From a virus (lineage: Duplodnaviria > Heunggongvirae > Uroviricota > Caudoviricetes), in the IMG/VR virus record IMGVR_UViG_2718218435_000004: a stretch of DNA of 37,062 nucleotides. One strand, given 5' to 3'. The position numbers and the translations under genes are program-made. This document shows, piece after piece, positions 3,097 through 33,813 of the stretch. Within the stretch, counting starts at the first letter, position 1, and each line of letters starts with the position of its first letter. The notes beneath the pieces were generated by a model. The model was not told the DNA's origin. It saw nothing but the letters and a program-made list of their open reading frames with translations, and did no database searches.

Positions 3097-5544
3097 TTAA
3101 CCGTCATGCATCATGCTGGCACGGGCGCGCACACGTTTATCCCGCTCGTATTTTTCGAGCGCATCCTGTAACTGGCGGTCGAGCTGTGTCCCCGGCGCAG
3201 TACCACCCGTCAGGCTGATGTGATATTCGTTTTTACTCTGGTCCACATAAGAGCGGCCAGCCGGTGCCGTGACCGGCTGATAAGCCTGATAGCCTGCATA
3301 AGAGCTGGTCGCCGGAATATAACCACCGGTGCCATACGTGGCGGCATGAGTTCTGGCGGCGGTCTGGTCAAGTGTGTCTGACTCTTTGTTGATAACACCG
3401 AGTTTTTCCAGTACCCAGTCAATACCGCTGCGCAGTTTGTTGAACGCATTAAGCGGCAGCATCAGCGCGTCAGCCAGTGCCTGCCCGAACATGACGCCCG
3501 TGTCACGGCAACGGTTCAGGGTGTCCTGGGTGGCTTTAACCGGAGCAATCAGGTTTGTAAACCACTGCCACGCGGCCTGTAACTTTTCGCCCAGCCAGTC
3601 AAACACCGGTTTCAGTGGCGTGAACAGTTCCCCCACCGGCGCAAAGGCCGCTTTCAGCCCTTCCACCACACCGCCAAAGAATGCGCTGACAGGCTCCCAG
3701 TATTTACGGATAAGCAACGCCCCGGCGACAATGGCAGCCACCACGGCCACAACCGGCCAGCTAATCGCCCCGATGGCCGTCATAACGGCACTACCAACCG
3801 TCGTGAAGATTGCCCCCATTGCGCCTGCTGCCGCGATGATGGCATTGATGCCGGTGATAACCGGCCAGGCTATGAGGCCAATGGCACCGATGACACCAGT
3901 CAGCGCCAGTGCACCACCGACAATGATGCCGATGGTTGACGCCAGTGATTTGTTTTTCTGTATCCAGCCGTCGAGTTTTAACACATACTTTGTGGCCGTC
4001 TGCGTGAGATTACGCAGTGCGCCTTCCTGTTGGTCAAACAGGTCAGTCCCCACCGCCTCATAAGCGGACTGAAACTCCTTAAAGTCACCGCCGAGGTTAT
4101 CCTGCATGATATTTACCAGCTCGGCGGTCTTCCCGTCTGAGGCTTTAAACGCAGCGGTCAGTTTGTCCAGCTTTCCGGTTGAGGCGGCAGTCATCAGCAC
4201 GGCGGCGGCTGAGCTGGCCTCCTCCCCGAAAATAGTTTTCATGTATTCAGCCTGCTGGGCAGTACCGAGCCGGTTTTTCTCAAAACTGGCCTGCATTTCT
4301 TTCAGAATGGTAAATATTGGCCGGGTGTTTCCCTTGCTGTCTGAGGTTTTCACTCCAAGCTCTTTGAGTGCATCCCATGCTTTTCCCGTCGGTGCCTGCA
4401 GGCGGCTTAACACGGCACGGCTTCCCGTCCCCGCCATTGAGCCTGTGATTTTTGCATCATGCAGCGCCCCGACCATTGCGGCGGTTTCTTCAATGCTGAC
4501 ACCGGCATTTTTTGCCACAGGTGCGGCATAGGTCAGCGCATCGCTCATGCCGTCAAAATCGGCGGCGGTTTTGTTCATCGTCATGGAGAGAACATCCCCG
4601 ATATGAGCGACCTTATCGTTTGAAAGCTGAAAGGCGGATTTCATCCCCATCAGCAGGGCGGCGTTTTCTTCCATCGTGCGGCGGTTCGCCAGCGCCATAT
4701 TCAGCGTGACCGGCGTTGCCGCCTGAATGGCATCAACATCCCCACCCGCTTTCGCGATGATTATCTGTGCACCGGCCGCATCATCCGCCGAGGCTGCGGT
4801 ATTGTCACCGAGCTGGCGCGCCTGTTTGCGTAGTGCGGTCATTTCGGCGGAGTCTTTTGCCACTCCGAGCACGGCCTGCAATTCTGAGTTTTTCTGCGCA
4901 AACTCATAACCGGGCATCAGCAGCTTAACTCCGGCCATCGTTCCCGCCGCCGCAATCCCCACACCGGCAGCGCCCACCGAGGCCATATTTCCGGCCAGTT
5001 CCTTTCCGGCCTGATAACGCTGTTTGACTGCGTTAAGTTTTGCCTGTTGCGCACTGACACGCGCCAGCGCATCACGCTGACGGTTAAGCTGTGCGGTGGT
5101 TTCACTGATACGGTTTTTCAGTCCCTGCTCATCATGTGCAAGATTGCGGGTATTAATTCCCACAGCGGCCAGTTCCCGCTGCTGGCGTTTAACGGAATCC
5201 GTCAGGCGGTTATATTTCGCCTGTAAGTCCTCCGCCGCACGCTTTGCGGATTCCAGCACTTTCGCCTGAGCACGGGTCGGACGTTCGGTGTTTTTAAACT
5301 GTGTGGCAAGGGCTTCGGCTTCCTGCCGTGCCTTTTCAAGTGCATGACCAGTCACGGCGAGCTGCGCACTGGTCTTGCGAAATCCCTCAATACGGGATGC
5401 GTGACCGTTCAGCTCGCGCAGTGATTTTTGTGTTTCCCGGATATCCCCCGACAGCGACTTGCTCGCTGTGCGGATGGATTTAAACGGGCGGGATGCCTGG
5501 TCAACAGCCCTGAGCAATACCTGTAATTTTACATTGTTACTCAT
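3097..5544 (-). CDS. T: Tail tape measure protein T
   Basis: 815 aa (P2 gpT is 815 aa); coiled-coil-rich N-terminal half and Gly/Ala-rich hydrophobic central region typical of tape measure proteins. Confidence 0.9.
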   Translation of the reverse strand: MSNNVKLQVLLRAVDQASRPFKSIRTASKSLSGDIRETQKSLRELNGHASRIEGFRKTSAQLAVTGHALEKARQEAEALATQFKNTERPTRAQAKVLESAKRAAEDLQAKYNRLTDSVKRQQRELAAVGINTRNLAHDEQGLKNRISETTAQLNRQRDALARVSAQQAKLNAVKQRYQAGKELAGNMASVGAAGVGIAAAGTMAGVKLLMPGYEFAQKNSELQAVLGVAKDSAEMTALRKQARQLGDNTAASADDAAGAQIIIAKAGGDVDAIQAATPVTLNMALANRRTMEENAALLMGMKSAFQLSNDKVAHIGDVLSMTMNKTAADFDGMSDALTYAAPVAKNAGVSIEETAAMVGALHDAKITGSMAGTGSRAVLSRLQAPTGKAWDALKELGVKTSDSKGNTRPIFTILKEMQASFEKNRLGTAQQAEYMKTIFGEEASSAAAVLMTAASTGKLDKLTAAFKASDGKTAELVNIMQDNLGGDFKEFQSAYEAVGTDLFDQQEGALRNLTQTATKYVLKLDGWIQKNKSLASTIGIIVGGALALTGVIGAIGLIAWPVITGINAIIAAAGAMGAIFTTVGSAVMTAIGAISWPVVAVVAAIVAGALLIRKYWEPVSAFFGGVVEGLKAAFAPVGELFTPLKPVFDWLGEKLQAAWQWFTNLIAPVKATQDTLNRCRDTGVMFGQALADALMLPLNAFNKLRSGIDWVLEKLGVINKESDTLDQTAARTHAATYGTGGYIPATSSYAGYQAYQPVTAPAGRSYVDQSKNEYHISLTGGTAPGTQLDRQLQDALEKYERDKRVRARASMMHDG

Positions 5545-5964
5545 TCGTGTTTCCGCTTCGCCGGAGCGCCTTTTCGCGCCATGTGATGAGTTCGGTCAGG
5601 CTCATGGGATACAGTTCTGATGGCGGCCAGTGAAATATCACTGCCACATCCGCCATCAGGTCATCGACCGAGAGATTTTTCGGAAACGTCACTGCACCGA
5701 GTTCGGCGACAAAAAACCGACCACCTTACCGGCCAGCGCCACAAGGTCAGGCAGTTCCAGCGCGGCGACTTCCTGCTCGGTCAGCATCGGTGCCGTCATG
5801 CGCGGCAGCACTTTAATCAGTGCATCGACTTCGGAGTTCGCGACTGCAGCCAGACTGACACCGCGCAGCGTCCCGGCATTGGGTTTCATCAGCGTGACCT
5901 GTTCGATAACCTGCTCACCACGTTTGACCGGATTGTCCAGGGTAATGACGTTTTCTTTGTTCAT
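5537..5964 (-). CDS. E+E': Tail assembly chaperone E+E', made by programmed -1 ribosomal frameshift
   Basis: The - strand mRNA reads GTC GGT TTT TTG TCG near 5710-5718, giving the slippery heptamer T-TTT-TTG a few codons before the E stop. The hand-translated -1 frame continues VAELGAVTFPKNLSVDDLMADVAVIFHWPPSELYPMSLTELITWREKALRRSGNTNE to a stop at about 5537-5539, for 85 + 57 = 142 aa, the known size of P2 E+E'. It ends just past the T start codon. Confidence 0.75.
5689..5964 (-). CDS. E: Tail assembly chaperone E
   Basis: 91 aa (MNKENVITLDNPVKRGEQVIEQVTLMKPNAGTLRGV...), matches P2 gpE and sits between FII and T. Confidence 0.9.
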   Translation of the reverse strand: MNKENVITLDNPVKRGEQVIEQVTLMKPNAGTLRGVSLAAVANSEVDALIKVLPRMTAPMLTEQEVAALELPDLVALAGKVVGFLSPNSVQ

Positions 5965-8061: not shown

Positions 8062-8961
8062 TCAAAGAATTAGCACTTGCTCTTCACTAGAAACTATGGT
8101 TCTGACTTCACGCTCAAATACTGGATCCATTATCATTTTTCTATTTGTTGGAATAGTAAATTTACCGAGTACCATGACAATGCTACTCAACGGAAATAAT
8201 TTTGGAGTAACATTTCCTAATTGAATCGTAGGATATATATTAAAGCCCCCTTTTATCCTCATTGGCGAACCTTCAATGAAGTGTCGATAATTAAATTTCG
8301 CCATAGGGATTCTCGCCACATGCACTTTCATAATTACAGCAACCTGAGCTATTTTTACTTTCTGGAGGTAAGTTGACAATCGTTCTAACTGCGTTGTTTC
8401 ATAGAAAAAATCAGACCACGTTACAGTACTTGTTCCAGTAACAATTTTTATGCTGTTTCTCTTGTTGGGGTGAGCTTTTCCATATTCATAGATCTCCCGT
8501 AAGCTATCCATGTTCTTCACATAAGGGGCTTTCCGACCTCTCTTGACATAAACGCGGTCTGTAGTATCAGAAGGTGGATTTGCCTGCATAGCTGCAGCTT
8601 TTCTGCTTAATTTAGAGATATCATCTTCATCGAGTATATGTATACGGAATATATTATTACCTGTGGCAAGCGCACGGCTGATATCATGACTGGAATCACT
8701 TGCATAAATTGTATTCAATCCTGAAGTTCCATACTGGCATAATTTGTCATGCGTGAAATTTTTTTCCAGTCTAAAGAAGGCGGGGATATGCAAGGTTTTA
8801 TTAAAACTCCGACGAATATGGCTTTTGACATACACCAAATGAGCAGAGCAATTTGGGTCAGGACATTTGAGTGGATAGGGATTAACACTATAATTAAAAG
8901 TATTTACATTTACTAAAATCTGATTGTTATCAATAGCCTGAGTTATACGAATACCACTCAT
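8062..8961 (-). CDS. Hypothetical 299-aa protein in the Z/fun cargo slot between FI and G; no family recognised
   Basis: ORF with an ATG start preceded by a strong GGAGGAG Shine-Dalgarno; markedly AT-rich relative to the flanking tail genes; occupies the position of the non-essential Z/fun gene of P2. Contains a Cys/His-rich segment (LKCPDPNCSAHLVYVKSH) but no motif I can assign. Confidence 0.7.
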   Translation of the reverse strand: MSGIRITQAIDNNQILVNVNTFNYSVNPYPLKCPDPNCSAHLVYVKSHIRRSFNKTLHIPAFFRLEKNFTHDKLCQYGTSGLNTIYASDSSHDISRALATGNNIFRIHILDEDDISKLSRKAAAMQANPPSDTTDRVYVKRGRKAPYVKNMDSLREIYEYGKAHPNKRNSIKIVTGTSTVTWSDFFYETTQLERLSTYLQKVKIAQVAVIMKVHVARIPMAKFNYRHFIEGSPMRIKGGFNIYPTIQLGNVTPKLFPLSSIVMVLGKFTIPTNRKMIMDPVFEREVRTIVSSEEQVLIL

Positions 8962-14236: not shown

Positions 14237-15022
14237 ATGTTCAGTGATAATGTGACTAATGCGTGGTGGTTTATCTCTTTGTATCTATTTTTATTAATAG
14301 CATTAACATTTGTTACCTTTGGTAAAAGTAATCTTATGAGGTTTATTGCACATCATTTCAATCTTGAGTATTCAGACAGAAAGTTAAAAATGCTCGACAA
14401 AAAATGGCGCGACATTCAACTATTTAAAATAATTAACGGAATCAATGTATCAGGCATCGAAGATGTGAGAATGATACAGCAGGGGCTGATTGATGGAAAA
14501 CTAAAAACATCGTATTTTTTCCTTACTCGCTTCTGGGGTGACATAACAAAACCACCACACATAATTAAAACAACAATTGTAATTCTGGCCAGTATTATTT
14601 ATATTCTCTTCGCATGTTATATACACAATGAACAATCCGCTATAGTAAGGGATGCCATAGGTATACCATATAAAAATATGATGTACTATGTTTATAGTGA
14701 CAAAGTTCTTTTATCCTTCAAAAATAAAACGGTTGAATTTAATAAAACTTATAGCCTTGCCGATTGCAAGAGTCTGCAAAACGTATTTATAAAAGACACA
14801 CTTCCCGAGATCGCCTGCAATAAGCTCTTACAGCTAAACAAGGAGGACTCCGAATGGTTAAGTCAGGAGATTAAAGATAATAACAGCTACAGAAAAACAT
14901 TATTAATAATATCCCTAACCTATTTCATTTCAGGTCTGCTTATATTCCTGTCATATACAAAATTCCTTTACGCCAATAAGAAGGTTGTAGAATACAAAGC
15001 ATCAAATAAAAATCACTCATAA
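14237..15022 (+). CDS. Hypothetical 261-aa membrane protein (about three predicted TM helices) in the orf30 cargo slot between V and S
   Basis: ATG with a GAGGAG Shine-Dalgarno; very AT-rich; transcribed opposite to the late tail genes; hydrophobic stretches near residues 10-28, 103-123 and 218-240. Confidence 0.7.
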   Translation: MFSDNVTNAWWFISLYLFLLIALTFVTFGKSNLMRFIAHHFNLEYSDRKLKMLDKKWRDIQLFKIINGINVSGIEDVRMIQQGLIDGKLKTSYFFLTRFWGDITKPPHIIKTTIVILASIIYILFACYIHNEQSAIVRDAIGIPYKNMMYYVYSDKVLLSFKNKTVEFNKTYSLADCKSLQNVFIKDTLPEIACNKLLQLNKEDSEWLSQEIKDNNSYRKTLLIISLTYFISGLLIFLSYTKFLYANKKVVEYKASNKNHS

Positions 15023-17948: not shown

Positions 17949-19490
17949 ATGCCAACAGTTCCAATTTCTATGAGAAAACTTAAAGAAATTCTTAGGCTTA
18001 AATACGGTGTTGGACTCAGCCATCGACAAATTGGTCGTAGTCTTGCAATCTCCCCTTCCGTTGTATCCAGATATGCTAATCGGGCGGCTCAACTTGGCAT
18101 AAAGCAGTGGCCCTTACCTACAGGATGGGATGATACAAAACTAAAACATGCGTTCCTTCAGACCCAGGTTAAGATGAAGAAGCACTCTCTGCCTGACTGG
18201 GCTACAGTACACCGGGAACTGCGTAATAAATGCGTGACGCTGCAGCTACTCTGGGAAGAATACTGTGAGCGTAATCCAGGCGGTTTTTACAGCTATAACC
18301 ATTACTGCCGGATGTACCGTGAATGGCTCAAAACCACTTCACCATCAATGCGTCAGGTACATAAAGCTGGCGAAAAACTTTTCGTTGATTACTGTGGACC
18401 TACCGTTGGCGTTACCGACCCTGAGACCGGAGAAATAAGAACTGCTCAGGTCATCGTAGCTGTTCTCGGGGCATCAAGTTACACATGGGCAGAGGCCACC
18501 TGGTCTCAGCAGCTTGAAGACTGGGTGATGAGTCATGTTCGCTGCTTCCAGTGGTTGGGTGGCGTTCCTGAACTTGTTGTTCCGGACAATCTGAAAAGCG
18601 CCACATCCAGGGCATGTAAGTATGATCCTGACGTTAACCCTACCTACCAGCAGATGCTTGAGCATTATAATGTCGCAGTTTTGCCTGCGCGGCCACGTAA
18701 ACCGAAAGATAAAGCCAAAGCTGAAGTTGGCGTTCAGGTTGTTGAACGCTGGATCATGGCCCGAATCAGGCATGAGATCTTCTACAGCCTTGCATCGCTT
18801 AATCAGCGCATTCGGGAGTTGCTGGAAAGACTGAATAACAAAATAATGCAGAAGTTGGGTTATTCACGTGCAGAACTCTTCATCCAGCTTGATAAACCCG
18901 CACTGAAGCCTCTTCCTGAAGCCAGTTACAGTTACACCCTGGTGAAGAAAGTCAGAGTTCATGCCGATTACCACGTGGAAATCGACAAACATTACTACTC
19001 GGTTCCATGTTCGCTGTTAGGCCAGCAACTGGAAGCATGGATCTCCGGAGAACTGGTAAGACTCTTCAATCAGGGGCAGGAGGTTGCTGTGCACCCGCGC
19101 AAGCGTACTTATGGCTACAGTACCCGCAACGAGCACATGCCTGAAGCTCATCGACAGCATGCCACCTGGACGCCAGAGCGTCTTCTGGAATGGGCGGGGC
19201 ACATAGGCAGTGAAACTCATAGTTATGTGCTTCATATACTGAACTCTCGTCCACATCCGGAACAAAGCTATCGCTTCTGCCTTGGACTCCTGAACCTTCA
19301 TAAAAAATACAGTAAAGCCAGACTTAATGCAGCATGTGCAAGAGCTCTGAAAACAAAGGTATGGCGTCTGTCAGGTATTAAATCGATCCTGGAAAAAGGT
19401 CTGGATAAACAACCTGTTCAGGATCCAAAACCAGATCTGTTATCCACGATGGAACACGAAAACGTACGCGGCAGTGAGTATTACCACTGA
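17949..19490 (+). CDS. istA: IS21-family transposase IstA
   Basis: 513 aa; N-terminal HTH region followed by a DDE transposase core; immediately followed by istB. Confidence 0.9.
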   Translation: MPTVPISMRKLKEILRLKYGVGLSHRQIGRSLAISPSVVSRYANRAAQLGIKQWPLPTGWDDTKLKHAFLQTQVKMKKHSLPDWATVHRELRNKCVTLQLLWEEYCERNPGGFYSYNHYCRMYREWLKTTSPSMRQVHKAGEKLFVDYCGPTVGVTDPETGEIRTAQVIVAVLGASSYTWAEATWSQQLEDWVMSHVRCFQWLGGVPELVVPDNLKSATSRACKYDPDVNPTYQQMLEHYNVAVLPARPRKPKDKAKAEVGVQVVERWIMARIRHEIFYSLASLNQRIRELLERLNNKIMQKLGYSRAELFIQLDKPALKPLPEASYSYTLVKKVRVHADYHVEIDKHYYSVPCSLLGQQLEAWISGELVRLFNQGQEVAVHPRKRTYGYSTRNEHMPEAHRQHATWTPERLLEWAGHIGSETHSYVLHILNSRPHPEQSYRFCLGLLNLHKKYSKARLNAACARALKTKVWRLSGIKSILEKGLDKQPVQDPKPDLLSTMEHENVRGSEYYH

Positions 19491-19501
19491 TACGGGATCC
19501 A

Positions 19502-20251
19502 ATGATGAATCATCTTTACGAACAACTGACCGCACTTAAACTCACCGGCTTCCGTGATGCGCTTAAAAAGCAACTTGCTCAGCCGGGCACATACCAGGAG
19601 CTGGGCTTCGAAGAACGCCTGTCATTACTGACAGCAGAAGAACTAACCTGCCGTGAAAACAGGAAGGCAGAGCGTCTGATCAAACATGCACGGTTCAGAC
19701 TTAATGCTGAGTTATCAAAGCTGGATTATCGTAACAATAGAGGGCTGGACAGGGCCCTCATCCGTTCACTCAGTCAGGGAAACTGGTTAACCCTGAAACA
19801 AAATATTTTACTGACCGGGGCCACCGGCAGCGGTAAAACGTTCCTGGCATGTGCACTTGGTCATAATGCCTGCCGACAGGGATACAAGGTCTACTATTAT
19901 CGCCTTAAAGCGCTGATGGAACAGTGCTATCAGGGGCATGCTGATGGAAGATACAGCAAACTTTTGACCAGGCTGAATAATAGCGATCTGCTGCTTCTGG
20001 ATGACTGGGGGCTGGAACCTCTCTCATCAGAACAGCGTAGCGACCTGCTGGAAATAGTGGATCTGATGTACCAACGAGGCTCAATCATCGTAGTGAGCCA
20101 GTTGCCGGTGGAAAACTGGTACAAAATGATCGGAGACTCCACACATGCGGATGCCATCCTAGATCGACTGGTTCATGGCAGTATCAAGATCGAACTTAAA
20201 GGAGAATCAATGCGGAAAATACAATCTCCGTTGACCGAAGGAGATCAGTGA
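19502..20251 (+). CDS. istB: IS21-family helper ATPase IstB
   Basis: 249 aa with Walker A GATGSGKT and Walker B LLLLDDWG, typical of IstB AAA+ proteins. Confidence 0.9.
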   Translation: MMNHLYEQLTALKLTGFRDALKKQLAQPGTYQELGFEERLSLLTAEELTCRENRKAERLIKHARFRLNAELSKLDYRNNRGLDRALIRSLSQGNWLTLKQNILLTGATGSGKTFLACALGHNACRQGYKVYYYRLKALMEQCYQGHADGRYSKLLTRLNNSDLLLLDDWGLEPLSSEQRSDLLEIVDLMYQRGSIIVVSQLPVENWYKMIGDSTHADAILDRLVHGSIKIELKGESMRKIQSPLTEGDQ

Positions 20252-24053: not shown

Positions 24054-25826
24054 ATGACCATCACCACAGACACCACTCTTTTACACGACCCGCGTCGTCA
24101 GGCGGCGCTGCTGTACTGGCAGGGGTTTTCCGTGCCGCAGATTGCCGCCATGTTGCAGATGAAACGCCCGACGGTGCAGAGCTGGAAACAGCGCGACGGC
24201 TGGGACAGCGTTGCCCCCATCAGCCGTGTCGAAATGAGTCTGGAAGCGCGACTGACCCAGCTCATCATCAAACCGCAGAAAACCGGCGGTGACTTCAAGG
24301 AAATTGACCTGCTGGGACGCCAGATTGAACGACTGGCACGGGTAAACCGCTACAGTCAGACCGGCAACGAGGCAGACCTTAATCCGAACGTCGCTAACCG
24401 CAACAAAGGCGGGCGTCGCAAACCGAAAAAGAATTTTTTCAGTGACGAGGCCATCGAAAAGCTGGAGCAGATTTTCTTTGAGCAGTCTTTCGAATATCAG
24501 TTGCACTGGTATCACGCCGGGCTTGAGCACCGCATCCGCGATATCCTGAAATCCCGCCAGATTGGCGCGACGTTTTATTTTTCCCGCGAGGCGCTGCTGC
24601 GCGCCCTGAAAACCGGTCATAACCAGATTTTTCTGTCGGCCAGTAAAACGCAGGCGTATGTGTTCCGCGAATACATCATCGCCTTTGCCCGTCTGGTTGA
24701 CGTTGACCTGACCGGTGACCCGATTGTCCTGGGCAATAACGGCGCAAAACTAATTTTTCTCGGCACCAACTCCAACACCGCACAGAGCCATAACGGCGAC
24801 CTGTACGTCGACGAGATTTTCTGGATCCCGAATTTTCAGGTACTGCGTAAGGTGGCATCAGGTATGGCCTCACAGAGTCACCTGCGCTCGACCTATTTCT
24901 CCACCCCGTCCACGCTGGCGCACGACGCCTACCCGTTCTGGTCGGGTGAACTGTTTAACCGGGGACGCGCCAGCGCCGCCGAACGCGTGGAAATCGACGT
25001 CAGTCATAACGCCCTTGCCGGTGGGCTTCTCTGTGCGGACGGCCAGTGGCGGCAGATTGTCACCATTGAGGACGCCCTGAAAGGCGGCTGCACGCTGTTC
25101 GACATTGAGCAGCTCAAACGCGAAAACAGCGCCGACGATTTTAAAAACCTGTTCATGTGTGAATTTGTTGACGACAAGGCGTCGGTATTCCCGTTCGAGG
25201 AGCTGCAACGCTGCATGGTCGACACGCTGGAAGAATGGGAAGACTATGCGCCGTTTGCCGCCAATCCGTTCGGCTCCCGCCCGGTATGGATTGGTTACGA
25301 CCCGTCACACCGTGGCGACAGCGCCGGATGCGTGGTGCTGGCACCGCCGGTGGTGGCCGGAGGTAAATTCAGAATACTTGAGCGTCACCAGTGGAAAGGC
25401 ATGGACTTTGCCACTCAGGCGGAATCCATCCGCAAACTCACCGAAAAATACAACGTCGAATACATCGGAATTGATGCCACCGGCCTCGGTGTCGGCGTGT
25501 TCCAGCTCGTGCGCTCGTTCTATCCCGCCGCGCGCGATATCCGCTACACGCCGGAAATGAAAACCGCAATGGTGCTCAAGGCAAAAGACGTCATCCGCCG
25601 TGGCTGTCTGGAATATGACGTCAGCGCCACCGACATCACCAGCTCGTTCATGGCTATCCGCAAGACCATGACCAGCAGCGGACGCAGCGCCACCTATGAG
25701 GCCAGCCGTAGCGAGGAAGCCAGCCACGCCGACCTCGCCTGGGCGACCATGCACGCCCTGTTAAATGAGCCACTCACCGCCGGTATCAGCACCCCGCTGA
25801 CATCCACCATTCTGGAGTTTTACTGA
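24054..25826 (+). CDS. P: Terminase large subunit P (ATPase/endonuclease)
   Basis: The ORF-track ORF begins at a TTG; the internal ATG with an AGG Shine-Dalgarno gives MTITTDTTLLHDPRRQAALLYWQGFSVPQIAAM..., 590 aa, matching P2 gpP. Confidence 0.9.
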   Translation: MTITTDTTLLHDPRRQAALLYWQGFSVPQIAAMLQMKRPTVQSWKQRDGWDSVAPISRVEMSLEARLTQLIIKPQKTGGDFKEIDLLGRQIERLARVNRYSQTGNEADLNPNVANRNKGGRRKPKKNFFSDEAIEKLEQIFFEQSFEYQLHWYHAGLEHRIRDILKSRQIGATFYFSREALLRALKTGHNQIFLSASKTQAYVFREYIIAFARLVDVDLTGDPIVLGNNGAKLIFLGTNSNTAQSHNGDLYVDEIFWIPNFQVLRKVASGMASQSHLRSTYFSTPSTLAHDAYPFWSGELFNRGRASAAERVEIDVSHNALAGGLLCADGQWRQIVTIEDALKGGCTLFDIEQLKRENSADDFKNLFMCEFVDDKASVFPFEELQRCMVDTLEEWEDYAPFAANPFGSRPVWIGYDPSHRGDSAGCVVLAPPVVAGGKFRILERHQWKGMDFATQAESIRKLTEKYNVEYIGIDATGLGVGVFQLVRSFYPAARDIRYTPEMKTAMVLKAKDVIRRGCLEYDVSATDITSSFMAIRKTMTSSGRSATYEASRSEEASHADLAWATMHALLNEPLTAGISTPLTSTILEFY

Positions 25827-26860
25827 TGAGCAAGAAAAAAGGGAAAACACCGCAACCTGCGGCAAAAAAAATGACCGCCAGCGCCCCGAAAATGGAGGCA
25901 TTCACCTTTGGTGAGCCGGTGCCGGTACTCGACCGCCGTGACATTCTGGATTACGTCGAGTGCATCAGTAACGGCAGATGGTATGAGCCACCAGTCAGCT
26001 TTACCGGTCTGGCAAAAAGCCTGCGTGCTGCCGTGCATCACAGCTCACCGATTTACGTCAAACGTAACATTCTGGCCTCAACGTTTATCCCACACCCGTG
26101 GCTTTCTCAGCAGGATTTCAGCCGCTTTGTGCTGGATTTTCTGGTATTCGGTAATGCGTTTCTGGAAAAGCGTTACAGCACCACCGGTAAGGTCATCAGA
26201 CTGGAAACCTCACCGGCAAAATATACCCGCCGTGGCGTGGAGGAGGATGTTTACTGGTGGGTGCCGTCCTTCAACGAGCCGACACCTTTCGCGCCCGGCT
26301 CCGTGTTTCACCTGCTGGAGCCGGATATTAATCAGGAGCTGTACGGTCTGCCGGAATATCTCAGCGCCCTTAACTCTGCCTGGCTGAATGAGTCGGCCAC
26401 GCTGTTCCGCCGCAAGTATTACGAAAACGGCGCTCATGCCGGATATATCATGTACGTCACTGATGCCGTGCAGGATCGCAACGATATCGAAATGCTTCGC
26501 GAAAACATGGTGAAGTCGAAAGGCCGCAACAACTTTAAAAACCTGTTTCTCTATGCCCCGCAGGGGAAAGCTGACGGCATTAAAATTATCCCGCTCAGTG
26601 AAGTGGCAACGAAGGACGATTTTTTTAATATCAAAAAAGCCAGCGCCGCTGACCTGCTGGACGCGCACCGCATCCCCTTTCAGTTGATGGGCGGCAAGCC
26701 GGAGAACGTCGGGTCGCTGGGTGATATTGAGAAAGTAGCAAAGGTCTTTGTCCGCAATGAGCTTATCCCGTTACAGGACAGGATCCGCGAGATAAACGGC
26801 TGGCTCGGTCAGGAGGTCATCCGATTTAAAAACTACTCACTGGACACTGACAACGGCTGA
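25826..26860 (+). CDS. Q: Portal protein Q
   Basis: 344 aa, matches P2 gpQ; ATG overlaps the P stop (TGATG). Confidence 0.9.
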   Translation: MSKKKGKTPQPAAKKMTASAPKMEAFTFGEPVPVLDRRDILDYVECISNGRWYEPPVSFTGLAKSLRAAVHHSSPIYVKRNILASTFIPHPWLSQQDFSRFVLDFLVFGNAFLEKRYSTTGKVIRLETSPAKYTRRGVEEDVYWWVPSFNEPTPFAPGSVFHLLEPDINQELYGLPEYLSALNSAWLNESATLFRRKYYENGAHAGYIMYVTDAVQDRNDIEMLRENMVKSKGRNNFKNLFLYAPQGKADGIKIIPLSEVATKDDFFNIKKASAADLLDAHRIPFQLMGGKPENVGSLGDIEKVAKVFVRNELIPLQDRIREINGWLGQEVIRFKNYSLDTDNG

Positions 26861-27048: not shown

Positions 27049-27247
27049 CGCCCGCTTCATGGGTCGGTTTTGATGCAATTACATTAGTCCATCAGAGCCT
27101 CATGGATTACACCATACGAAAACATCCTCAACCATTGAACATAGATGCAAATCCATGCACCCTATAGATTCATATACCATCCCTGATTGCAGGAATGAAT
27201 AACACATGCGACAATAAGAGCATTTTTCATAAGAGTAACGGTGACAC

Positions 27248-28252
27248 ATGGATCAGAGAATCCTTGAACATGAAGCGATTAAACAACTTAGCAAAAAATC
27301 AGTGCGCAAGTTGTTTGGGGTTCACGATATCCCTAGAGCCAGTTCACCATTTCGCTATCCAGGAGGTAAAGACAAACTTGCCTCATTTCTCGCTATTTTT
27401 CTTGTACATAATAAGTTAAATGGTGGCCGGTTTATTGAACCATTTTGTGGTGGTGCTGGAGCATCACTTTCTTTACTATTGGGCGGATATGTAAAAGAGA
27501 TCCACTTAAATGATAAGAACTATGCTTTATTTTGCTTTTGGGATCAATTAATTAACAACACTGATAATTTATTGGATATGGTATATCAGAATATACCATG
27601 CATTGACGATTGGCATAAACAAAAGAAAATCTACCAAACGAGTATTATTGACCCCAATAAATACACCAAACTCGAATATGGTTTTAGTGTATTCTATTTA
27701 AACAGAACAAACAGATCTGGAGTACTAAGCGCTGGGCCAATTGGCGGTTTAGACCAGTCTGGAAAATATAAAATTGATTGCAGATACACTGTAAGTACGC
27801 TTATTAAAAAGCTCGAAAAAATAGCTAGCATGCGTGACTCTATATTCGTTTATAACGAGCACTGCATTGATTTTTTAAAACGTTTCAATAGTAAAGATAA
27901 CTATGATCATGATTTCGTTTATCTAGATCCTCCTTATGTTAAAGAGGGGCGCAACATTTATTCAAAAAACTTTTGCTTCGATGACACTCAGCATCGCGAG
28001 CTTAAGGATTACATAGCTGGTTATGCAAATCGTTGGTTAATTTCTTATGACGATCACCCTCTAGTGCATGAATTATACTCAAAACATGGCACAAGAGCCG
28101 TTGAGATAAGTTACGCCATGAATAAAGCAAAAGTTGGAAAAGAATTAATGATAGCGGATTCTCGCTTAAGAATGCCAGAATCATTATTCTCTGTTGATAT
28201 ATTAAAATCTGGCGAAATACCAATGAAGAAAAAAGTAGTTAAAATGGCCTGA
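27248..28252 (+). CDS. Dam-like (D12-class) N6-adenine DNA methyltransferase
   Basis: 334 aa with FRYPGGK near the N-terminus, the SAM-binding motif EPFCGGAGAS and the catalytic DPPY motif; AT-rich; lies where P2 has old/tin. Confidence 0.85.
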   Translation: MDQRILEHEAIKQLSKKSVRKLFGVHDIPRASSPFRYPGGKDKLASFLAIFLVHNKLNGGRFIEPFCGGAGASLSLLLGGYVKEIHLNDKNYALFCFWDQLINNTDNLLDMVYQNIPCIDDWHKQKKIYQTSIIDPNKYTKLEYGFSVFYLNRTNRSGVLSAGPIGGLDQSGKYKIDCRYTVSTLIKKLEKIASMRDSIFVYNEHCIDFLKRFNSKDNYDHDFVYLDPPYVKEGRNIYSKNFCFDDTQHRELKDYIAGYANRWLISYDDHPLVHELYSKHGTRAVEISYAMNKAKVGKELMIADSRLRMPESLFSVDILKSGEIPMKKKVVKMA

Positions 28253-28254
28253 TA

Positions 28255-29274
28255 TCAGGCCGCTTCTGCTTGTAATGTTTCAGTTGTAGAAATCACATAT
28301 TGTGAAATATCATTTATTTCATCTTTCCGTTCTATTAGTAGCCCTGGATCTGATACCAACAGTTCTAACCCTTTCTTAAAGCAAGTAGGTAACCGGAGTC
28401 TATGCAATACTGCGCCAAACTCCTCTGCGACTAGTGAAATATGGTCTTTCTTTATAGATTCATCATCACTCTCAAAATCAAAAGGTATAACAATAGCATC
28501 AGTTATTCTATATATTCTTTGCGCTAACCAGTGATTTTGTATGTTTGCAATATCCTCTTTTATTGCTTTTGAACGCCAATCTTGGCCGCTAGCAACTTGA
28601 GCAAAATAAATTTGCTTGCTTCCCGGATATGTATCGCGGGGATTATTATCTTTCCATGCAATCACATCAATACCAGCATCTTTATGAGGTCGTGTTTGCA
28701 AATAACGATTAACATCCTCAAATGGTCTAACCCTTCCTTCACCAATTAAATCAACAGCTCTAGTAAGAGCATCATAAAACTTTGAACTATCAGGTCTTGG
28801 CCAGCCGAATGAAATACTATGCCCCTGAACATAGCCAGCTAATGCAATTGTTGCAGCAATCTGTAATAAGTCTCGGTGTTTTCCTGTCGGCAAATCTACC
28901 CCATTAAATAGCCGTGATGCCGACATATGAGAAAAATACAAACAATATAAGTATATATGCTGATCTACGGTAAGTAATTCCAATGTTTCCTTTGCCAATT
29001 CCAAACATTGCGTTTCTTCATTAAAAATAAAAGGATAGCTATCCCCGAGTATATCCTTTCTTTGTTGATATTGTTCTAATAGTCTTTGTATTTCATTTTC
29101 GACTTCAGCATCTTCTTCGCCTATATCGGAAGATGTAAATGAATCTAAGTTCTCTAGAATATTCCTTAGTTCTGAAATTCGCATTGTAAAATATACATTT
29201 GATAAGCAAGATAACTCAAGCCAATCCAATTTGACTTGAATATGATGACTCTCTGGATAAGGTTGCAACTGCAT
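28255..29274 (-). CDS. Hypothetical 339-aa protein, second gene of a two-gene operon; possible nuclease-like partner (tentative)
   Basis: ATG 3 nt after the stop of the upstream ParB-like gene with a GAGGAA Shine-Dalgarno; AT-rich; convergent with the MTase, stops 2 nt apart. Segment HKDAGIDVIAWKD...IYFAQVASGQ loosely resembles Mrr-type PD-(D/E)xK motifs, but this is not established. Confidence 0.7.
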   Translation of the reverse strand: MQLQPYPESHHIQVKLDWLELSCLSNVYFTMRISELRNILENLDSFTSSDIGEEDAEVENEIQRLLEQYQQRKDILGDSYPFIFNEETQCLELAKETLELLTVDQHIYLYCLYFSHMSASRLFNGVDLPTGKHRDLLQIAATIALAGYVQGHSISFGWPRPDSSKFYDALTRAVDLIGEGRVRPFEDVNRYLQTRPHKDAGIDVIAWKDNNPRDTYPGSKQIYFAQVASGQDWRSKAIKEDIANIQNHWLAQRIYRITDAIVIPFDFESDDESIKKDHISLVAEEFGAVLHRLRLPTCFKKGLELLVSDPGLLIERKDEINDISQYVISTTETLQAEAA

Positions 29275-29277
29275 CTC

Positions 29278-30405
29278 TTATTCCTCAATGCTCTGCAATT
29301 GATATTGAACCTTAGATACCTTTCTCTTAAACTGTTCGATGTAGTTCTTCGTCGTATCGTCTAACGAATCTGTTCTATCTAAAACAGAAGATATAGTATC
29401 AAGTTGTTTGTTTATTTCCAAAAAAGCATCTTTAATGTGTTGAAGAGGGTCACCCGCTTGCTTATATAATTCAGAAAGACTTTCAACTCCAGACTTAAAA
29501 GCTTCATATGAAGCCTCATTCGCTAAAACCTCACCAAAATATTTCAAATCAGGATTTTGCGAAGAGATCAACGATGCTCTTTTATCTTTTTTATACCCAT
29601 AAAGACCGATCAGAACATCTCTGAGTTTATCAAGATTCCTTTGCGGTACAGGATTCTTTCTGAGTGTAATATTCCAATCTTTCTCCAATCCTAAAAAATC
29701 TTTATATTCAGTTCTATTCAAAGCCGTATACAAATGAGAAAAAGAAAATTTTGGTGACATTCTGTCGACATGAATATCATATATTTCTTGAGTTTTAGCC
29801 TGTTCAAGAACAAACATAGCACTAACTATAGAACGAACAGTATTGTTACTGTCACCAAGTTTTTTTGTTATATGTTCAATAGTGAGACCGTTATCTCTTT
29901 CACTTATAAACCATTTATATGCGAACTGTGCTTTAGCAAACGAATCCCATTTATGGGGACCATTAACATGTTTAAATCCAATAAATGAACGAGCTTCTGA
30001 CTCATCATTAACAAGATAAACAGCAACTTCCTTGAGGCTATCCAAAACCCAAGAATCTATATTTTTTGGAACGACAACTCGACATTTTTGTGCCAAGCCC
30101 GGTTCAGTAAGCAATTTGATGGCAGCTAAACGACGATTACCTTCTAAGACGACATACTTATCATCTTTTTTCATGACAATTAAAGGTTCAATCGACATAT
30201 ATCCATTTTCAGAAATGGATTTAATCAATTCTTCTAAATCTGCAGTATCAGATAATGCTTTAACCAACTCATATGAGTCAGCATTATCATTAAAGCTTTT
30301 CCCGTTATAAAGCCTTGGATTTCTAGCATCCAAGATTAACTCATCCGGGGAAATCATCTGTGTTTTGAGCGGTTCTAAGACAGTTTTTGGCATTTTATGC
30401 ACCAT
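29278..30405 (-). CDS. ParB/Srx N-terminal-domain protein (ParB-like nuclease/NTPase fold), first gene of the two-gene operon
   Basis: 375 aa; NPR box near the N-terminus (LILDARNPRLY) and SIEPLIVMKKDDKYVVLEGNRRLAAIKLL resembling the ParB GxRR arginine motif; AT-rich. The true start may be the first ATG or the ATG four codons downstream. Confidence 0.7.
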   Translation of the reverse strand: MVHKMPKTVLEPLKTQMISPDELILDARNPRLYNGKSFNDNADSYELVKALSDTADLEELIKSISENGYMSIEPLIVMKKDDKYVVLEGNRRLAAIKLLTEPGLAQKCRVVVPKNIDSWVLDSLKEVAVYLVNDESEARSFIGFKHVNGPHKWDSFAKAQFAYKWFISERDNGLTIEHITKKLGDSNNTVRSIVSAMFVLEQAKTQEIYDIHVDRMSPKFSFSHLYTALNRTEYKDFLGLEKDWNITLRKNPVPQRNLDKLRDVLIGLYGYKKDKRASLISSQNPDLKYFGEVLANEASYEAFKSGVESLSELYKQAGDPLQHIKDAFLEINKQLDTISSVLDRTDSLDDTTKNYIEQFKRKVSKVQYQLQSIEE

Positions 30406-30607
30406 AATCTAAATAAAATTCACGTCATCCCATGCGTTCCTTGCCTCTTTAACATGATTTCCATAAATTTTCCATAGAAACATGAATAACGTTTGATGGC
30501 AGATTACAATATCAGCACATATAGTAAAATCAACTAAGACTTCGCAACGCTCGTAATTCAGTCCCGCCAGCCCTGAACACAAGTTTCACGACTGGCGGCG
30601 TTCTCTA

Positions 30608-30811
30608 TCATCTGCGTGGTGGTGGCGTAACTCTTGATTGACCGATATGGTTAAACCGCCCGTAATTATCCCGGACTATTTCGGCACACCCGACCAACTC
30701 GTCGGGCGTCAGATTTTCGTTGACCATAATCCGCTGTAAACGCTGAACAATAGCCATCAGCTTGATATTTTTAGTTTTATGGTGCGGTATCTCGCCTGGT
30801 ATTCTGTGCAT
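30608..30811 (-). CDS. Small hypothetical protein (about 67 aa) translationally coupled to the upstream gene
   Basis: ATG overlaps the stop of the 30811..31266 gene (TAATG); no recognisable motif. Confidence 0.35.
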   Translation of the reverse strand: MHRIPGEIPHHKTKNIKLMAIVQRLQRIMVNENLTPDELVGCAEIVRDNYGRFNHIGQSRVTPPPRR

Positions 30812-31266
30812 TATCCAAGCCACCCGTTTTGCTGTGCACGCTCCATCTGTTCATCTGAATAGTTCCATGCTCCATCCGTGGCAACCATTGCCCCGCCAGA
30901 CATCCCCGTCTCTGGTTCATACATAACAGCAAGGCCGAGCTGATGCATAATTTCATGATTAATTCTGAATACCAGGCCACGCTCACTAAGTTCTTTCCAG
31001 TTCACAATCTCATATGCGCCTGTATTAAGCAGCTCAATACTTAGCAAGACATAGTCTTCCAGCCAGTCTGACAGGTCAGTAACATCTGTTATCCGGGCTT
31101 CAACCTTTCGCCCCGTATACACACCCTGCCCCCATTCATGCAAAATCAACGTGTCCCCGCGCTCATAATTACGGTCATTTTTCCGAAACTCTGCGCGTTT
31201 CTTTCCTTCCAGCACAAGGTCAAAATATTTTGCGTGCAGCTTTATCTCGTGAATTTTTGCCATCAT
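30811..31266 (-). CDS. Hypothetical protein with an N-terminal ASCH/DUF3850-like (PUA-fold) domain, immediately downstream of A
   Basis: Start ATGATG overlaps the A stop; N-terminal MAKIHEIKLHAKYFDLVLEGKKRAEFRKNDRNYERGDTLILHEW resembles ASCH/DUF3850 domains; C-terminal half unassigned. Confidence 0.6.
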   Translation of the reverse strand: MMAKIHEIKLHAKYFDLVLEGKKRAEFRKNDRNYERGDTLILHEWGQGVYTGRKVEARITDVTDLSDWLEDYVLLSIELLNTGAYEIVNWKELSERGLVFRINHEIMHQLGLAVMYEPETGMSGGAMVATDGAWNYSDEQMERAQQNGWLG

Positions 31267-33548
31267 GTCCACTCCATTACTGTTGAGAATCCCGGCCACT
31301 CATCAGCGACCGGATACGTGAATTTTTTCCCGTCATAATTTACAGTCGCACCACGCGCCAGCGCCTCAAGCTCCCATCGCTGCGGCCTGATACCGTTCTG
31401 AGCAAGGTCAACGCGGATACGGGTGATTTGCAATCGTTCAGACCTGGTCAGTCTGGCAGATGGTGCAATTTCATGCGGTTTTAACATGCTTCCGTTTCTT
31501 TGCTGACGGTTTGGTCTTCTCAGGCCGTGTTTTAATGCGCCCCTGAGCGCCCTCACGACCTCCGGGTCATTCCATTCGATAACACCATCATCAACCAGAT
31601 TTAGCACTGCTGCAGCGTGCTCAGAAGGTGTGGGAGCCGGTAACGAAGCATCACTACCGGTGAGCTTTCCACAGTTATTGACAGGACTCCGAGGCGCGGC
31701 GATGCCGCTTTTTAAAGTCAAAGGCTCAACGACCGGAACTTTCGGCACAATGCGCCAGTCCGTCGTTCTGGTGATATGAATATGACGCGCGCCGAGATGC
31801 GGCGCGTAAATACCGACCACTCTCTCGACTTCTTCCTCGTACTCGTTAACGTCACTCGACGGGCTACGGGCAACCCTGACAGTCTGACAATCGCGCGGGA
31901 CATTTGCCCCACCCTGCGCGCTGATATACAACGCAAAATCACCACTGTCTGCGGCAGCGCGAGCAGCCTCGACGCGTTCGTCAAACTCATCAGCAATACT
32001 GACGCCGCGAGGTAATTTGCGTAGTTCACGGTAAGCCCCCATTGTCGGCAGGCCAACCGTTTTAAATTGCGGAATGCGCCACGTTGACGCCCATGCGGTA
32101 ACAGCCGCGGCAGTGTCTTTCAGCGGCCTGCCGGTATCGTTATCGAGCTGACCATCCAGTGCATAGCCGTCGATGTTTTTTGAAATGTATTTCGCGATAT
32201 ACCCCGCAGCACCGCCCCGATTAAGGTGTTTTGCCTGAAAACGGTTTCGCGCGGCTCCTCTTTCGTCGCCATCCTCTTTGAGCGCATAGCGACGCATGAT
32301 TTCGATAATCTGGTTACGCTGGCGCGAATTACAAAAAAGCATCATATGCCAGTGCGGCGTTCCGTCGTGGTGTGGCTCGACGACACGCAAACCGTAGACC
32401 TGTAAATCATTATCCTTGAATGCCGTGCGCATCAGGCTCCAGATACGGCAGAGATAACGCTGCGCATCCTTTGGATTAAATGCCTCATCGTTCCAGCCGT
32501 GATTAAGCTGCACGGTTTTACTTTCGCCTTTTCCTACCTGACGTGTCGGGTGATACTTTGACGGCGCGGTCAGCGTGATAAACATCCCCACATCACCCTC
32601 TGCAGCGGCGTAACGCTCAATACCGGCAATGGTGTTCATCAGCTCCATCCGGCGAATTTCAGGATTAGAAATACTGCCCATCACCTTACTGATAAGGTCG
32701 ATGCGCTCGCCGGTTTCCCTGTTTTCAAGGTCACACGATTTAAGAAATTCCAGATTTGCCTGGCGGCGCGCACGCACATCACGAATGGCATGTTTACTGG
32801 CATAAGGTGAACGGTCTTTATTGACCTCCCCGACAGCAATCAGTAACGCCTCATGCCAGCGCATACGCTGGCCTTTAAGCTGACTAATCCACCACTCATC
32901 GTTAAACAGGCGGGCAATGGCAGAATATGCCTGCCTCGTGGTCATCTGCCCTTTACGGTATTTTCTCCAGTACAGCGGGGAAATATTGAAAGCACGTGCA
33001 GCGCCAGCAACATGACCATACAGGTGAGCCTGCGCCTCATCCGTAAACAGCGATTCTTTTTCGCCATGGGCATCCACCCAGGCATCGCAGAGTTCCTCAT
33101 ACATCATGAAAAGCTGCGATGAGATACGGGCGGCAAACTTTTTCAGCTCCTTGTCATTCATTCCCGGCAGGCGCGCATAGTGGTCACGCTCTGCCAGAAA
33201 CAGCAACGACGCGTCGGTGTTCATTTCATGGCGCTGATTCACACGCTCAATGCGCGGCCATAAACGACGCTGAAAAGTGGATGTGAGGAAATAAAACCCG
33301 TGCACCGGGCTTTTATTGCGCCGGATGTAGTCATAGCGTGAAGTAAACAGCGAGCGCAAAAAGTAAGGCAGGCGGTTAATCGTGGATAAAACACCTTGCA
33401 CCTGACGCATCTCATCACGTGTAAGGGGTCTTTCGCGCCCGACGGCCTCGCGTGGCGCGTTCCATGCATAAGCACCGGTAAACATCTTACCGGTGCCTGC
33501 GGCAAATGCTGACGGAGGGACAAAACGCCCGGAGGCTTTAACGGCCAT
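31263..33548 (-). CDS. A: Replication initiation protein A (rolling-circle nicking endonuclease)
   Basis: Internal start MAVKASGRFVPPSAFAAGTGKMFTGAYAWNAPREAV... gives 761 aa, matching P2 gpA. Confidence 0.9.
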   Translation of the reverse strand: MAVKASGRFVPPSAFAAGTGKMFTGAYAWNAPREAVGRERPLTRDEMRQVQGVLSTINRLPYFLRSLFTSRYDYIRRNKSPVHGFYFLTSTFQRRLWPRIERVNQRHEMNTDASLLFLAERDHYARLPGMNDKELKKFAARISSQLFMMYEELCDAWVDAHGEKESLFTDEAQAHLYGHVAGAARAFNISPLYWRKYRKGQMTTRQAYSAIARLFNDEWWISQLKGQRMRWHEALLIAVGEVNKDRSPYASKHAIRDVRARRQANLEFLKSCDLENRETGERIDLISKVMGSISNPEIRRMELMNTIAGIERYAAAEGDVGMFITLTAPSKYHPTRQVGKGESKTVQLNHGWNDEAFNPKDAQRYLCRIWSLMRTAFKDNDLQVYGLRVVEPHHDGTPHWHMMLFCNSRQRNQIIEIMRRYALKEDGDERGAARNRFQAKHLNRGGAAGYIAKYISKNIDGYALDGQLDNDTGRPLKDTAAAVTAWASTWRIPQFKTVGLPTMGAYRELRKLPRGVSIADEFDERVEAARAAADSGDFALYISAQGGANVPRDCQTVRVARSPSSDVNEYEEEVERVVGIYAPHLGARHIHITRTTDWRIVPKVPVVEPLTLKSGIAAPRSPVNNCGKLTGSDASLPAPTPSEHAAAVLNLVDDGVIEWNDPEVVRALRGALKHGLRRPNRQQRNGSMLKPHEIAPSARLTRSERLQITRIRVDLAQNGIRPQRWELEALARGATVNYDGKKFTYPVADEWPGFSTVMEWT

Positions 33549-33813
33549 ATGAGCCAAAAGCCTCTGAACAACGCCTGCTGAGTTGCTCAACCTGCGCGTT
33601 TAAATCAGCAAAAGACTTTGCGCTTCCGGTCAGAATATCGTGATGCATCAGGCCGGAAACGAGCTGGCTTAATTTCGGGTAATAACCAACCACCGCCAGC
33701 CATTCCTGACCGGCGTTTTTACCGCTTTCCGCTCTCTTTTTCTCGTGGAGAATAAACTGAAAGCTGTCACTGGTAACGACATAACGTTCGCCAATTTCAA
33801 TACGAATACTCAT
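33538..33813 (-). CDS. Small early protein (P2 orf83-like position)
   Basis: 91-aa ORF packed tightly between orf82-like and A. Confidence 0.6.
   Translation of the reverse strand: MSIRIEIGERYVVTSDSFQFILHEKKRAESGKNAGQEWLAVVGYYPKLSQLVSGLMHHDILTGSAKSFADLNAQVEQLSRRCSEAFGSYGR

Follow-up and report, generated by a model that had tools for sequence, protein, structure and literature searches.

What is encoded by three AT-rich genes at the 'TO' hotspot, the site of tin and old in P2 and of numerous defence systems in related phages (PMC9519451, PMC9122126, PMC6823313)? The question is raised by a P2-like Escherichia coli prophage (IMG/VR record IMGVR_UViG_2718218435_000004), whose 37,062 nucleotides (nt) were analysed as a whole and are called the window below. 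A cargo island of about 3.4 kilobases within it consists of three intact genes, which encode a DNA methyltransferase (methylase), a 339-residue protein of an unnamed family, and a 375-residue ParB-like protein. We favour, with moderate confidence, the reading that the three genes form a nuclease system of the restriction-modification (R-M) type, guarded by methylation, carried as prophage cargo and an evolutionary sibling of PD-lambda-5, a validated two-gene anti-phage system described as 'ParB/HEPN, methyltransferase' (PMC9519451). On our best reading of the sequences, the HEPN effector that is fused to the ParB domain in PD-lambda-5 would be replaced in the trio by a separate nuclease. Methylase-linked defence cargo is the expected kind at this known hotspot.

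The cargo island and its genes

Homology to the backbone of P2-like phages (vB_EcoM-12474III and Wphi) stops at position 27084 and restarts at 30532 (Wphi) or 30641 (vB_EcoM-12474III), and the cargo is therefore placed at approximately 27085–30531. The island has a G+C (GC) content of 0.33–0.38, compared to around 0.55 in its flanks, and is located in the interval from portal gene Q (25826..26860) to replication gene A (31263..33590). The original prediction, which was made from the sequence alone, had placed a cargo island lacking old and tin at this hotspot, between gene A and cos, and had listed three open reading frames (ORFs) with their coordinates, strands and motifs; all of this was confirmed. 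The three genes are the only non-nested ORFs of at least 60 residues at the hotspot, where neither old (an OLD-family nuclease) nor tin was found, nor any match to OLD or Toprim. The features of the island are as follows.

27085..30531, no strand: cargo island at the P2 'TO' (A–Q) hotspot, delimited by the end of backbone homology and the drop in GC
27248..28252, plus strand: D12-class N6-adenine DNA methyltransferase of 334 residues, PD-Lambda-5_B family; presumed self-protecting modification enzyme
28246..28261, no strand: perfect 16-nt palindrome GGCCTGATATCAGGCC over both convergent stop codons; terminator-like hairpin on either strand
28255..29274, minus strand: 339-residue protein of unnamed family, its fold resembling that of PD-(D/E)xK restriction nucleases; presumed to be the effector that cleaves DNA
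29278..30405, minus strand: 375-residue ParB-like protein, with a ParB/Srx N-domain of nucleoside triphosphate (NTP)-binding type, a helix-turn-helix (HTH) and a helical C-terminal tail; presumed to act with the nuclease as a DNA sensor, clamp or regulator
30406..30531, minus strand: intergenic part of the cargo, upstream of the ParB gene; presumed, by position only, to hold the promoter of the two-gene operon

The methylase gene converges with the gene for the 339-residue protein, with 2 nt between the stop codons, and each of the two genes ends in GCC-TGA. An allele of roughly 83% identity has the same 2-nt spacing. The palindrome over the stop codons could act as a two-way terminator or as a site of antisense interference. 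On the other strand, only 3 nt separate the ParB stop codon from the next start codon (TAA-GAG-ATG), and a GAGG lies 10–13 nt upstream of this ATG, making it plausible that the two minus-strand genes are translationally coupled. The ParB ORF may begin at the ATG at 30405, or four codons later at 30393 as annotated in RefSeq (ATGGTGCATAAAATG). A block of sequence upstream of the ParB gene, ttcatgtttctatggaaaa, is common to the enteric alleles. A scan for consensus promoters gave no minus-strand match within 30406..30531, and the whole scanned region contained 10 matches, compared to 13.3 in shuffled sequences.

The island is 100% identical in E. coli strains D10 and F11, where RefSeq annotates the same three genes. 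Overall the cassette is rare, being found in 20 of 5,426 complete E. coli genomes; eight of these copies are at least 99.6% identical, and the other twelve represent the ~83% allele, with the same three genes. A near-identity search of phage genomes did not find a copy of the island. Between the two E. coli alleles, the ratio of nonsynonymous to synonymous divergence (dN/dS) is 0.03–0.04 for each gene (0.032 for the methylase), and we therefore conclude that all three genes are real and under purifying selection. The synonymous divergence (dS) is greater than 1 for the cassette genes but 0.10 for the adjoining portal gene, from which it appears that the cassette is exchanged as a block, in keeping with movable cargo at a hotspot.

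The 339-residue protein

No family in Pfam, NCBIfam or PADLOC matched the 339-residue protein or 53 of its homologues. The protein has 259 homologues in a 90%-identity database, and its family comprises 2,585 clusters at 50% identity. The top 150 representatives are all stand-alone proteins, the full-length ones being about 320–380 residues long, and none of them is long enough to be a fusion of ParB and nuclease.

The predicted structure is of high confidence, with a predicted local distance difference test (pLDDT) score of 94.6 and a predicted template modelling (pTM) score of 0.92. Its structural matches are weak, and almost all of them are PD-(D/E)xK restriction nucleases; a Foldseek search and a sequence-profile search of the PDB gave no significant match. 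Residues that are invariant in the family fall on the predicted core strands, in the two segments K198-D199-x-G-I-D203-V-I-A-W207 and Q226-V-A228-S-G230-x-x-W233-x-x-K236, which constitute a non-canonical version of the PD-(D/E)xK motif. Judged by this model, the 339-residue protein is a probable nuclease, and we refer to it and its homologues below as the nuclease.

The ParB-like protein

The 375-residue protein, which contains the motifs DARNPRL and VLEGNRRLAAIKLL, had been predicted to adopt the ParB/Srx fold. Pfam ParB_N gives a score of 20.7 bits, below its cut-off of 26.3, and the assignment is borne out by the closest structural matches, which are ParB, KorB and Spo0J proteins with KorB first, and by the P-motif. 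An alignment of 48 homologues shows as invariant DxxNPR, VLEGNRRL (the ParB P-motif), IGFKHxNGPxxW, a GD within the HTH, FSHLYTA and SQNP. The NTP-binding P-motif G89-N-R-R92 is thus invariant, and the HTH is of the LGDxxxTV type, while past residue 285 there is no invariant position. The protein therefore has a ParB-type build, its NTP-binding-type N-domain being followed by an HTH and a helical C-terminus. The original prediction counted both minus-strand products as nuclease-fold candidates: this holds for the 339-residue protein, whereas the ParB-like protein combines an NTP-binding-type domain with an HTH binder and contains no obvious nuclease.

Many of the PD-Lambda-5_A models match the ParB-like protein, over its first 160–240 residues only, from profiles that are mostly 430–530 positions long. 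The comparison by hhalign gives 97.9% and is strong only over residues 19–160 or so, and BLASTP gives 27% identity. We considered the presence of a HEPN domain and rejected it: the tail lacks the conserved Rx4-6H motif, and there is no HEPN structural match.

No gene for a ParA-type ATPase adjoins the ParB-like gene in the window, and nothing ParA-like was seen in the sampled neighbourhoods. Upstream of the ParB genes there is no operator or parS-like inverted repeat shared across loci, although no parS-specific search was made.

The methylase

The methylase carries the motifs FRYPGGK, EPFCGGAGAS (FxGxG-type; FCGGAG) and DPPY, and its catalytic and S-adenosylmethionine (SAM) motifs are intact. 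The description of this protein as Dam-like was right as to its class, since it matches the Pfam D12 family (PF02086) with an E-value of 3.7e-21. It does not extend to Dam itself: E. coli Dam was not matched at E<=0.001, the closest solved chain is 7m6b_B (1.5e-20), and DpnM is found at just 5.8e-4. A role as a Dam (GATC) enzyme is ruled out on this basis.

A full-length match is given by PADLOC model PDLC04018, PD-Lambda-5_B, which covers residues 31–314 with an E-value of 7e-94 over positions 4–280 of a 291-position profile. The original prediction could not map the gene set onto any named system. It does map partly onto one, PD-lambda-5: the methylase is a PD-Lambda-5_B protein and the ParB N-domain matches PD-Lambda-5_A.

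The three genes occur together across bacteria

Conservation of the three genes as a unit far beyond E. coli, which had been proposed as a check, was found in a wide range of genomes. In Caballeronia, at 30% identity, a gene for a 379-residue ParB-like protein is followed by one for a protein of 332 residues, with a convergent D12 methylase and an adjoining integrase, and a Vibrio campbellii prophage contains the same trio. In two further contigs, from genomes or metagenomes, the pair is followed by a co-directional, overlapping methylase of PF01555.

We then scanned the family using one genome per species, giving 55 loci from about a dozen phyla. These comprise Proteobacteria of several classes, Acidobacteria, Verrucomicrobia, Actinobacteria, Spirochaetes, Chloroflexi, Gemmatimonadetes, Cyanobacteria, Bacteroidetes, Armatimonadetes and Myxococcales. 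A locus in Vibrio fluminensis (L061) was left out of the counts, being a match of 24% identity in a Dnd/Pbe context. In each of the 54 loci that extend far enough to include the upstream DNA, the nuclease gene is immediately preceded by a ParB-like gene of the same orientation; a methylase adjoins the pair in 49 of the 52 loci in which this can be tested. The 49 methylases are 17 convergent D12 (one truncated), 13 co-directional D12, 2 upstream D12, and 17 co-directional enzymes of the SPPY type. The last are beta-class methylases, whose genes often overlap the nuclease gene by 4 nt. The true exceptions to the linkage are one Methylococcaceae cassette, represented by L013 and L014, and the remote Dnd/Pbe-linked locus L061.

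The identities of the ParB-like and nuclease proteins co-vary, with Spearman coefficients of 0.73 and 0.88, and the methylase follows more loosely in the D12 group (0.37). The ParB-like proteins are more conserved than their nuclease partners, with mean identities of approximately 40–47% versus 30–36%. The HTH is highly conserved across cassettes that have different classes of methylase. We asked whether its recognition helix tracks the methylase class, and found that it does not do so cleanly, the helix being conserved overall. The closest ParB pair with different methylases, in L045 and L052, is 76% identical, but this comparison is weakened as evidence by an N-terminal deletion in the L052 nuclease. 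The original prediction had likened the arrangement to that of R-M systems, and the observation that the linkage is kept while the methylase class is exchanged agrees with this: the exchange of methylase class beside a constant pair has, as far as sequences can tell, the signature of restriction-modification.

Some individual loci differ from the general pattern. The two Methylococcaceae loci, from metagenome-assembled genomes, have the pair with no nearby methylase, and genes for an amidohydrolase and an isoamylase come next; the explanation would be a methylase at another location or a pair that can be tolerated without one. In L061 (2823-8236) a remote ParB-like and nuclease-like pair is flanked by genes for an HNH endonuclease and a DndD/PbeC ATPase, which hints at a link of this pair of folds to systems of the Dnd/Pbe type. 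In L052 (Candidatus Entotheonella, 4794-5687) the nuclease homologue is short of about 70 N-terminal residues compared to its 67%-identical relative in L045, and a D12 methylase is present where L045 has an SPPY enzyme, so that this may be a decaying or rearranged cassette. Two Bacteroidales loci, L059 and L060, have the D12 methylase upstream of the pair rather than downstream. In L059 an AAA_15/AAA_21 ATPase (PADLOC PDC-M62A, PtuA-like) comes after the cassette, suggesting that the locus belongs to a defence island.

Relationship to PD-lambda-5 and to other systems

PD-lambda-5 was found by phage selection and had an effect on nine of the ten phages tested; cloning required an mrr-deleted host, and its authors read it as a compacted combination of R-M and abortive infection (PMC9519451). 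The window methylase belongs over its full length to the PD-Lambda-5_B family, the ParB N-domains are homologous and share DxxNPR, LEGNRR and H..G..W, and both systems are prophage-borne. They differ in that the PD-lambda-5 A protein is ParB fused to HEPN, while the window protein has an HTH and helical tail instead, and in that PD-lambda-5 has two genes, where the window has three, including a separate protein of PD-(D/E)xK fold and a convergent methylase.

Three composite loci contain the trio together with a full-length PD-Lambda-5_A gene (1e-135 to 1e-209), and in each of them only one methylase gene was detected.

Idiomarina L008, 6030-8291: the pair and, facing it, a D12 methylase and a PD-Lambda-5_A gene
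Cyanobacterial L058, 2542-4823: the pair, a PD-Lambda-5_A gene and a methylase, all co-directional
Lysobacteraceae L029, 5903-9121: the pair and an SPPY beta-class methylase, with a convergent PD-Lambda-5_A gene

This arrangement points to a modular family, in which one methylase guards one or two modules that each consist of a ParB domain plus an effector, the effector being either a fused HEPN domain or a separate nuclease.

When phage genomes were searched by tblastn, ParB-like genes came up in Wphi (orf98), vB_EcoM-12474II-V, Yersinia phages L-413C and HQ103, and Pseudomonas phage D14A. In the three regions that were inspected (Wphi, vB_EcoM-12474III and D14A), the ParB-like gene is followed by a gene for a 'hypothetical' protein of 299–369 residues and by a convergent C5-cytosine methylase. 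The Wphi (orf98-orf96-mth) and vB_EcoM-12474III cassettes share with the window the A–Q hotspot, the gene order and the convergence; that of D14A has the same gene order but adjoins tail genes. By hhalign the vB_EcoM-12474III and window ParB proteins match at 99.9% (E 1.4e-32, with 24% identity over 344 columns), and the partner proteins of vB_EcoM-12474III and D14A match the 339-residue protein at 97% (E about 1e-10), retaining D..D..AW, Q and W..K. These cassettes nevertheless differ from that of the window in having an identity of just 20–25% and a methylase that is C5 rather than D12. With these cassettes included, the ParB–nuclease pair occurs beside three classes of methylase: D12, beta-class SPPY and C5. 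The genes of the Wphi-type cassettes are annotated as hypothetical, and we found no functional study of them in the literature.

The exact proteins of the window are listed in Table S5A of Rousset et al. (WP_061348396, WP_061348395 and WP_061348401) as 'MethyltransfD12 + hypothetical + hypothetical', and the same table contains a common arrangement 'DNA_methylase + hypothetical + ParBc'. ParBc entries are absent from the table of tested systems in that paper, and the trio is not discussed in its main text. PADLOC also includes a candidate system, PDC-M38, whose A profile (PDC-M38A) matches residues 55–366 of the window ParB over positions 59–358 of 715 (5.9e-20), and is matched by the Wphi-type ParB proteins too. 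PDC-M38A is about 350 residues longer than the window ParB, and it does not match the 339-residue protein. Our literature search found nothing on PDC-M38, on ParB-HEPN proteins, or on ParB with a methyltransferase at the P2-like hotspot.

Type II and Type III R-M systems resemble the trio in the tight linkage of a methylase to a PD-(D/E)xK-fold protein, in the exchangeable class of the methylase and in carriage by mobile elements, and many relatives of the trio resemble multi-subunit R-M enzymes in having all three genes co-directional and overlapping. Type III enzymes have a helicase-like Res subunit where the trio has a ParB-fold NTP-binding protein, and the nuclease motif of the trio is non-canonical. 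To our knowledge, no restriction enzyme with a ParB-fold NTP-binding subunit has been described.

The combination of a ParB/Srx NTP-binding fold, a DNA-binding domain and a nuclease effector is also found in GmrSD, SspE, DndB and Menshen NsnA (PMC12065111, PMC12704722), and in GmrSD and SspE the ParB-superfamily domain detects modified DNA (PMC12065111). The window ParB differs from the GmrSD/DUF262 branch in having no DGQQR or QRxxxW motif and no match to Pfam DUF262 or HNH, and it is linked to a methylase, while GmrSD and SspE are not. Its best structural matches, KorB and Spo0J, relate it to the cytidine triphosphate (CTP)-gated clamps. It shares the GxxR nucleotide motif and the HTH with the ParB of ParABS systems, but has no adjoining ParA.

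A proposed mechanism and its alternatives

Under the favoured reading, the methylase would mark the DNA of host and prophage. The ParB-like protein would bind DNA via its HTH, and its nucleotide-bound state would engage or move on unmarked DNA, as other ParB-fold proteins do. There it would recruit or license the PD-(D/E)xK partner, which would cut, and unmethylated phage or plasmid DNA would be destroyed as it entered the cell. Loss of the cassette would expose the host chromosome, so that the prophage would be stabilised. Because the HTH is conserved, and because 76%-identical ParB proteins are found beside methylases of different families, sequence specificity may reside in the more variable nuclease, or may come from the methylase, as it does in Type III enzymes.

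A more specific version of this mechanism, which we put forward tentatively and regard as rather doubtful, is that the ParB-like protein is a nucleotide-gated DNA clamp, through which a restriction enzyme communicates over long distances as one of its subunits. The clamp would load at unmethylated sites, or via the methylase at such sites, and would then slide and license the PD-(D/E)xK partner.

The main rival reading is that the 339-residue protein is by itself the endonuclease of a classical Type II R-M system, and that the ParB-like protein is only a regulator similar to KorB or to a C protein, which times nuclease expression. We consider this unlikely, but it has several points in its favour. 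The ParB-like protein has an HTH, and its top structural match is KorB, a repressor of the ParB family; the ParB-like gene is upstream of the nuclease gene in a single operon, as controller genes are; and conservation of the HTH among the cassettes is consistent with a regulator that moves together with its operator. The lack of a conserved operator-like element upstream of the ParB genes across loci is weak evidence in the other direction. The ParB-like protein is moreover more conserved than the nuclease, and an invariant NTP-binding motif together with four further motifs seems more than a timing switch needs. Finally, in the sibling protein PD-Lambda-5_A this domain is joined directly to an effector (PMC9519451).

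The cassette might alternatively be an addiction module, in which the methylase is an antitoxin-like guard, the ParB–nuclease pair is the toxin, and any anti-phage effect is secondary. R-M systems are known to act as addiction modules, and the architecture here is that of R-M systems. The cassette occurs in prophages and beside integrases, and retention of a prophage that carries an IS21 insertion and is possibly immobile (see below) needs explaining. Addiction is however not exclusive of defence. As the main role it is in our view quite unlikely: the cargo of the A–Q hotspot is mostly anti-phage, some loci are beside other defence genes (L059), and the related PD-lambda-5 came from phage selection (PMC9519451).

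It is improbable that the island holds two independent neighbours, namely an orphan phage methylase that counters host restriction and a ParB–nuclease system of Type IV-like or abortive character. A convergent methylase, probably with its own promoter, and the methylase-less pair in Methylococcaceae would suit such an arrangement, as would the sensing of modified DNA by ParB-superfamily domains in GmrSD and SspE (PMC12065111). It is countered by the adjacency of the methylase in 49 of 52 loci, often with a 4-nt overlap. Since this adjacency persists across phyla and through changes of methylase class, a chance or phage-specific linkage is unlikely.

An ordinary two-gene PD-lambda-5 system with an unrelated passenger gene lodged between its genes is very improbable. 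Models for both PD-Lambda-5_A and PD-Lambda-5_B do match genes of the island, and an automatic annotator could label it PD-Lambda-5. However, the A-model matches span only the first ~160–240 residues, with neither motif nor structural match for HEPN; the supposed passenger directly follows the ParB-like gene in 54 of 54 loci, co-evolving and coupled with it; and genuine full-length PD-Lambda-5_A genes are distinct and can adjoin the trio.

DNA partition, as implied by the RefSeq name 'ParB/RepB/Spo0J family partition protein' and by the ParB fold, HTH and helical C-terminus, is hardly credible for a P2-type prophage, which integrates and needs no partition, when no ParA adjoins in the window or sampled loci, the constant neighbours are a nuclease-fold protein and a methylase, and Pfam ParB_N falls below its gathering threshold.

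Other features of the prophage

Between gene A and the cargo there are two further minus-strand genes, one encoding a protein with DUF3850/ASCH and DUF7415 domains (30811-31299) and the other an ORF of 71 codons (30608-30823). We read both as backbone and not cargo, because their DNA is 94–95% identical to that of other P2-like phages; the Wphi counterpart of the DUF3850 gene is annotated as similar to P2 orf91. Fusions of ParB-CTPase domains to DUF3850 are enriched in phages (PMC12704722). As the DUF3850 gene sits in backbone DNA, its position next to the ParB-like gene here is probably a coincidence.

An element of the IS21 family of insertion sequences is present among the late genes (17949-20251, plus strand), on the strand opposite to that of its neighbours. 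It encodes IstA (513 residues, with rve and Mu-transposase C domains) and IstB (249 residues), and a prophage with this insertion may be defective or immobile.

There are two further low-GC islands (about 0.37), each of a single gene. The first (8062-8961, minus strand; 299 residues) adjoins the tail-fibre assembly gene, and the second (14237-15022, plus strand; 261 residues) is on the strand opposite to that of its neighbours and is possibly at a second P2 hotspot, the Z/fun position. Neither protein has a match in Pfam or PADLOC, and the two genes are candidates for additional cargo or defence genes.

Implications

The three genes form a widespread unit that is undescribed in the libraries searched, and its nuclease partner has no model despite its 2,585 clusters. 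An annotator could call the locus PD-lambda-5 and miss what is likeliest to be the effector gene. The findings tie PD-lambda-5, the classical cargo of P2-like phages (Wphi orf98/orf96/mth and L-413C) and a PADLOC candidate system to a single modular plan, consisting of a specialised ParB domain, a variable effector (a fused HEPN domain or a separate nuclease) and an exchangeable methylase, and thereby give a concrete handle on the working of PD-lambda-5.

Should the clamp version of the mechanism be true, the trio would represent a class of R-M system built on a ParB switch and not on a helicase or translocase, whose specificity might come from the exchangeable methylase and not from the conserved HTH. 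One 'ParB-guarded' superfamily would then take in PD-lambda-5, the Wphi-type cassettes and PDC-M38 as its effector variants. What ParB-fold NTP switches do outside chromosome segregation is an open question (PMC12704722), and a small, clonable cassette native to E. coli, with genetic coupling of such a switch to a nuclease and a methylase, makes it directly testable.

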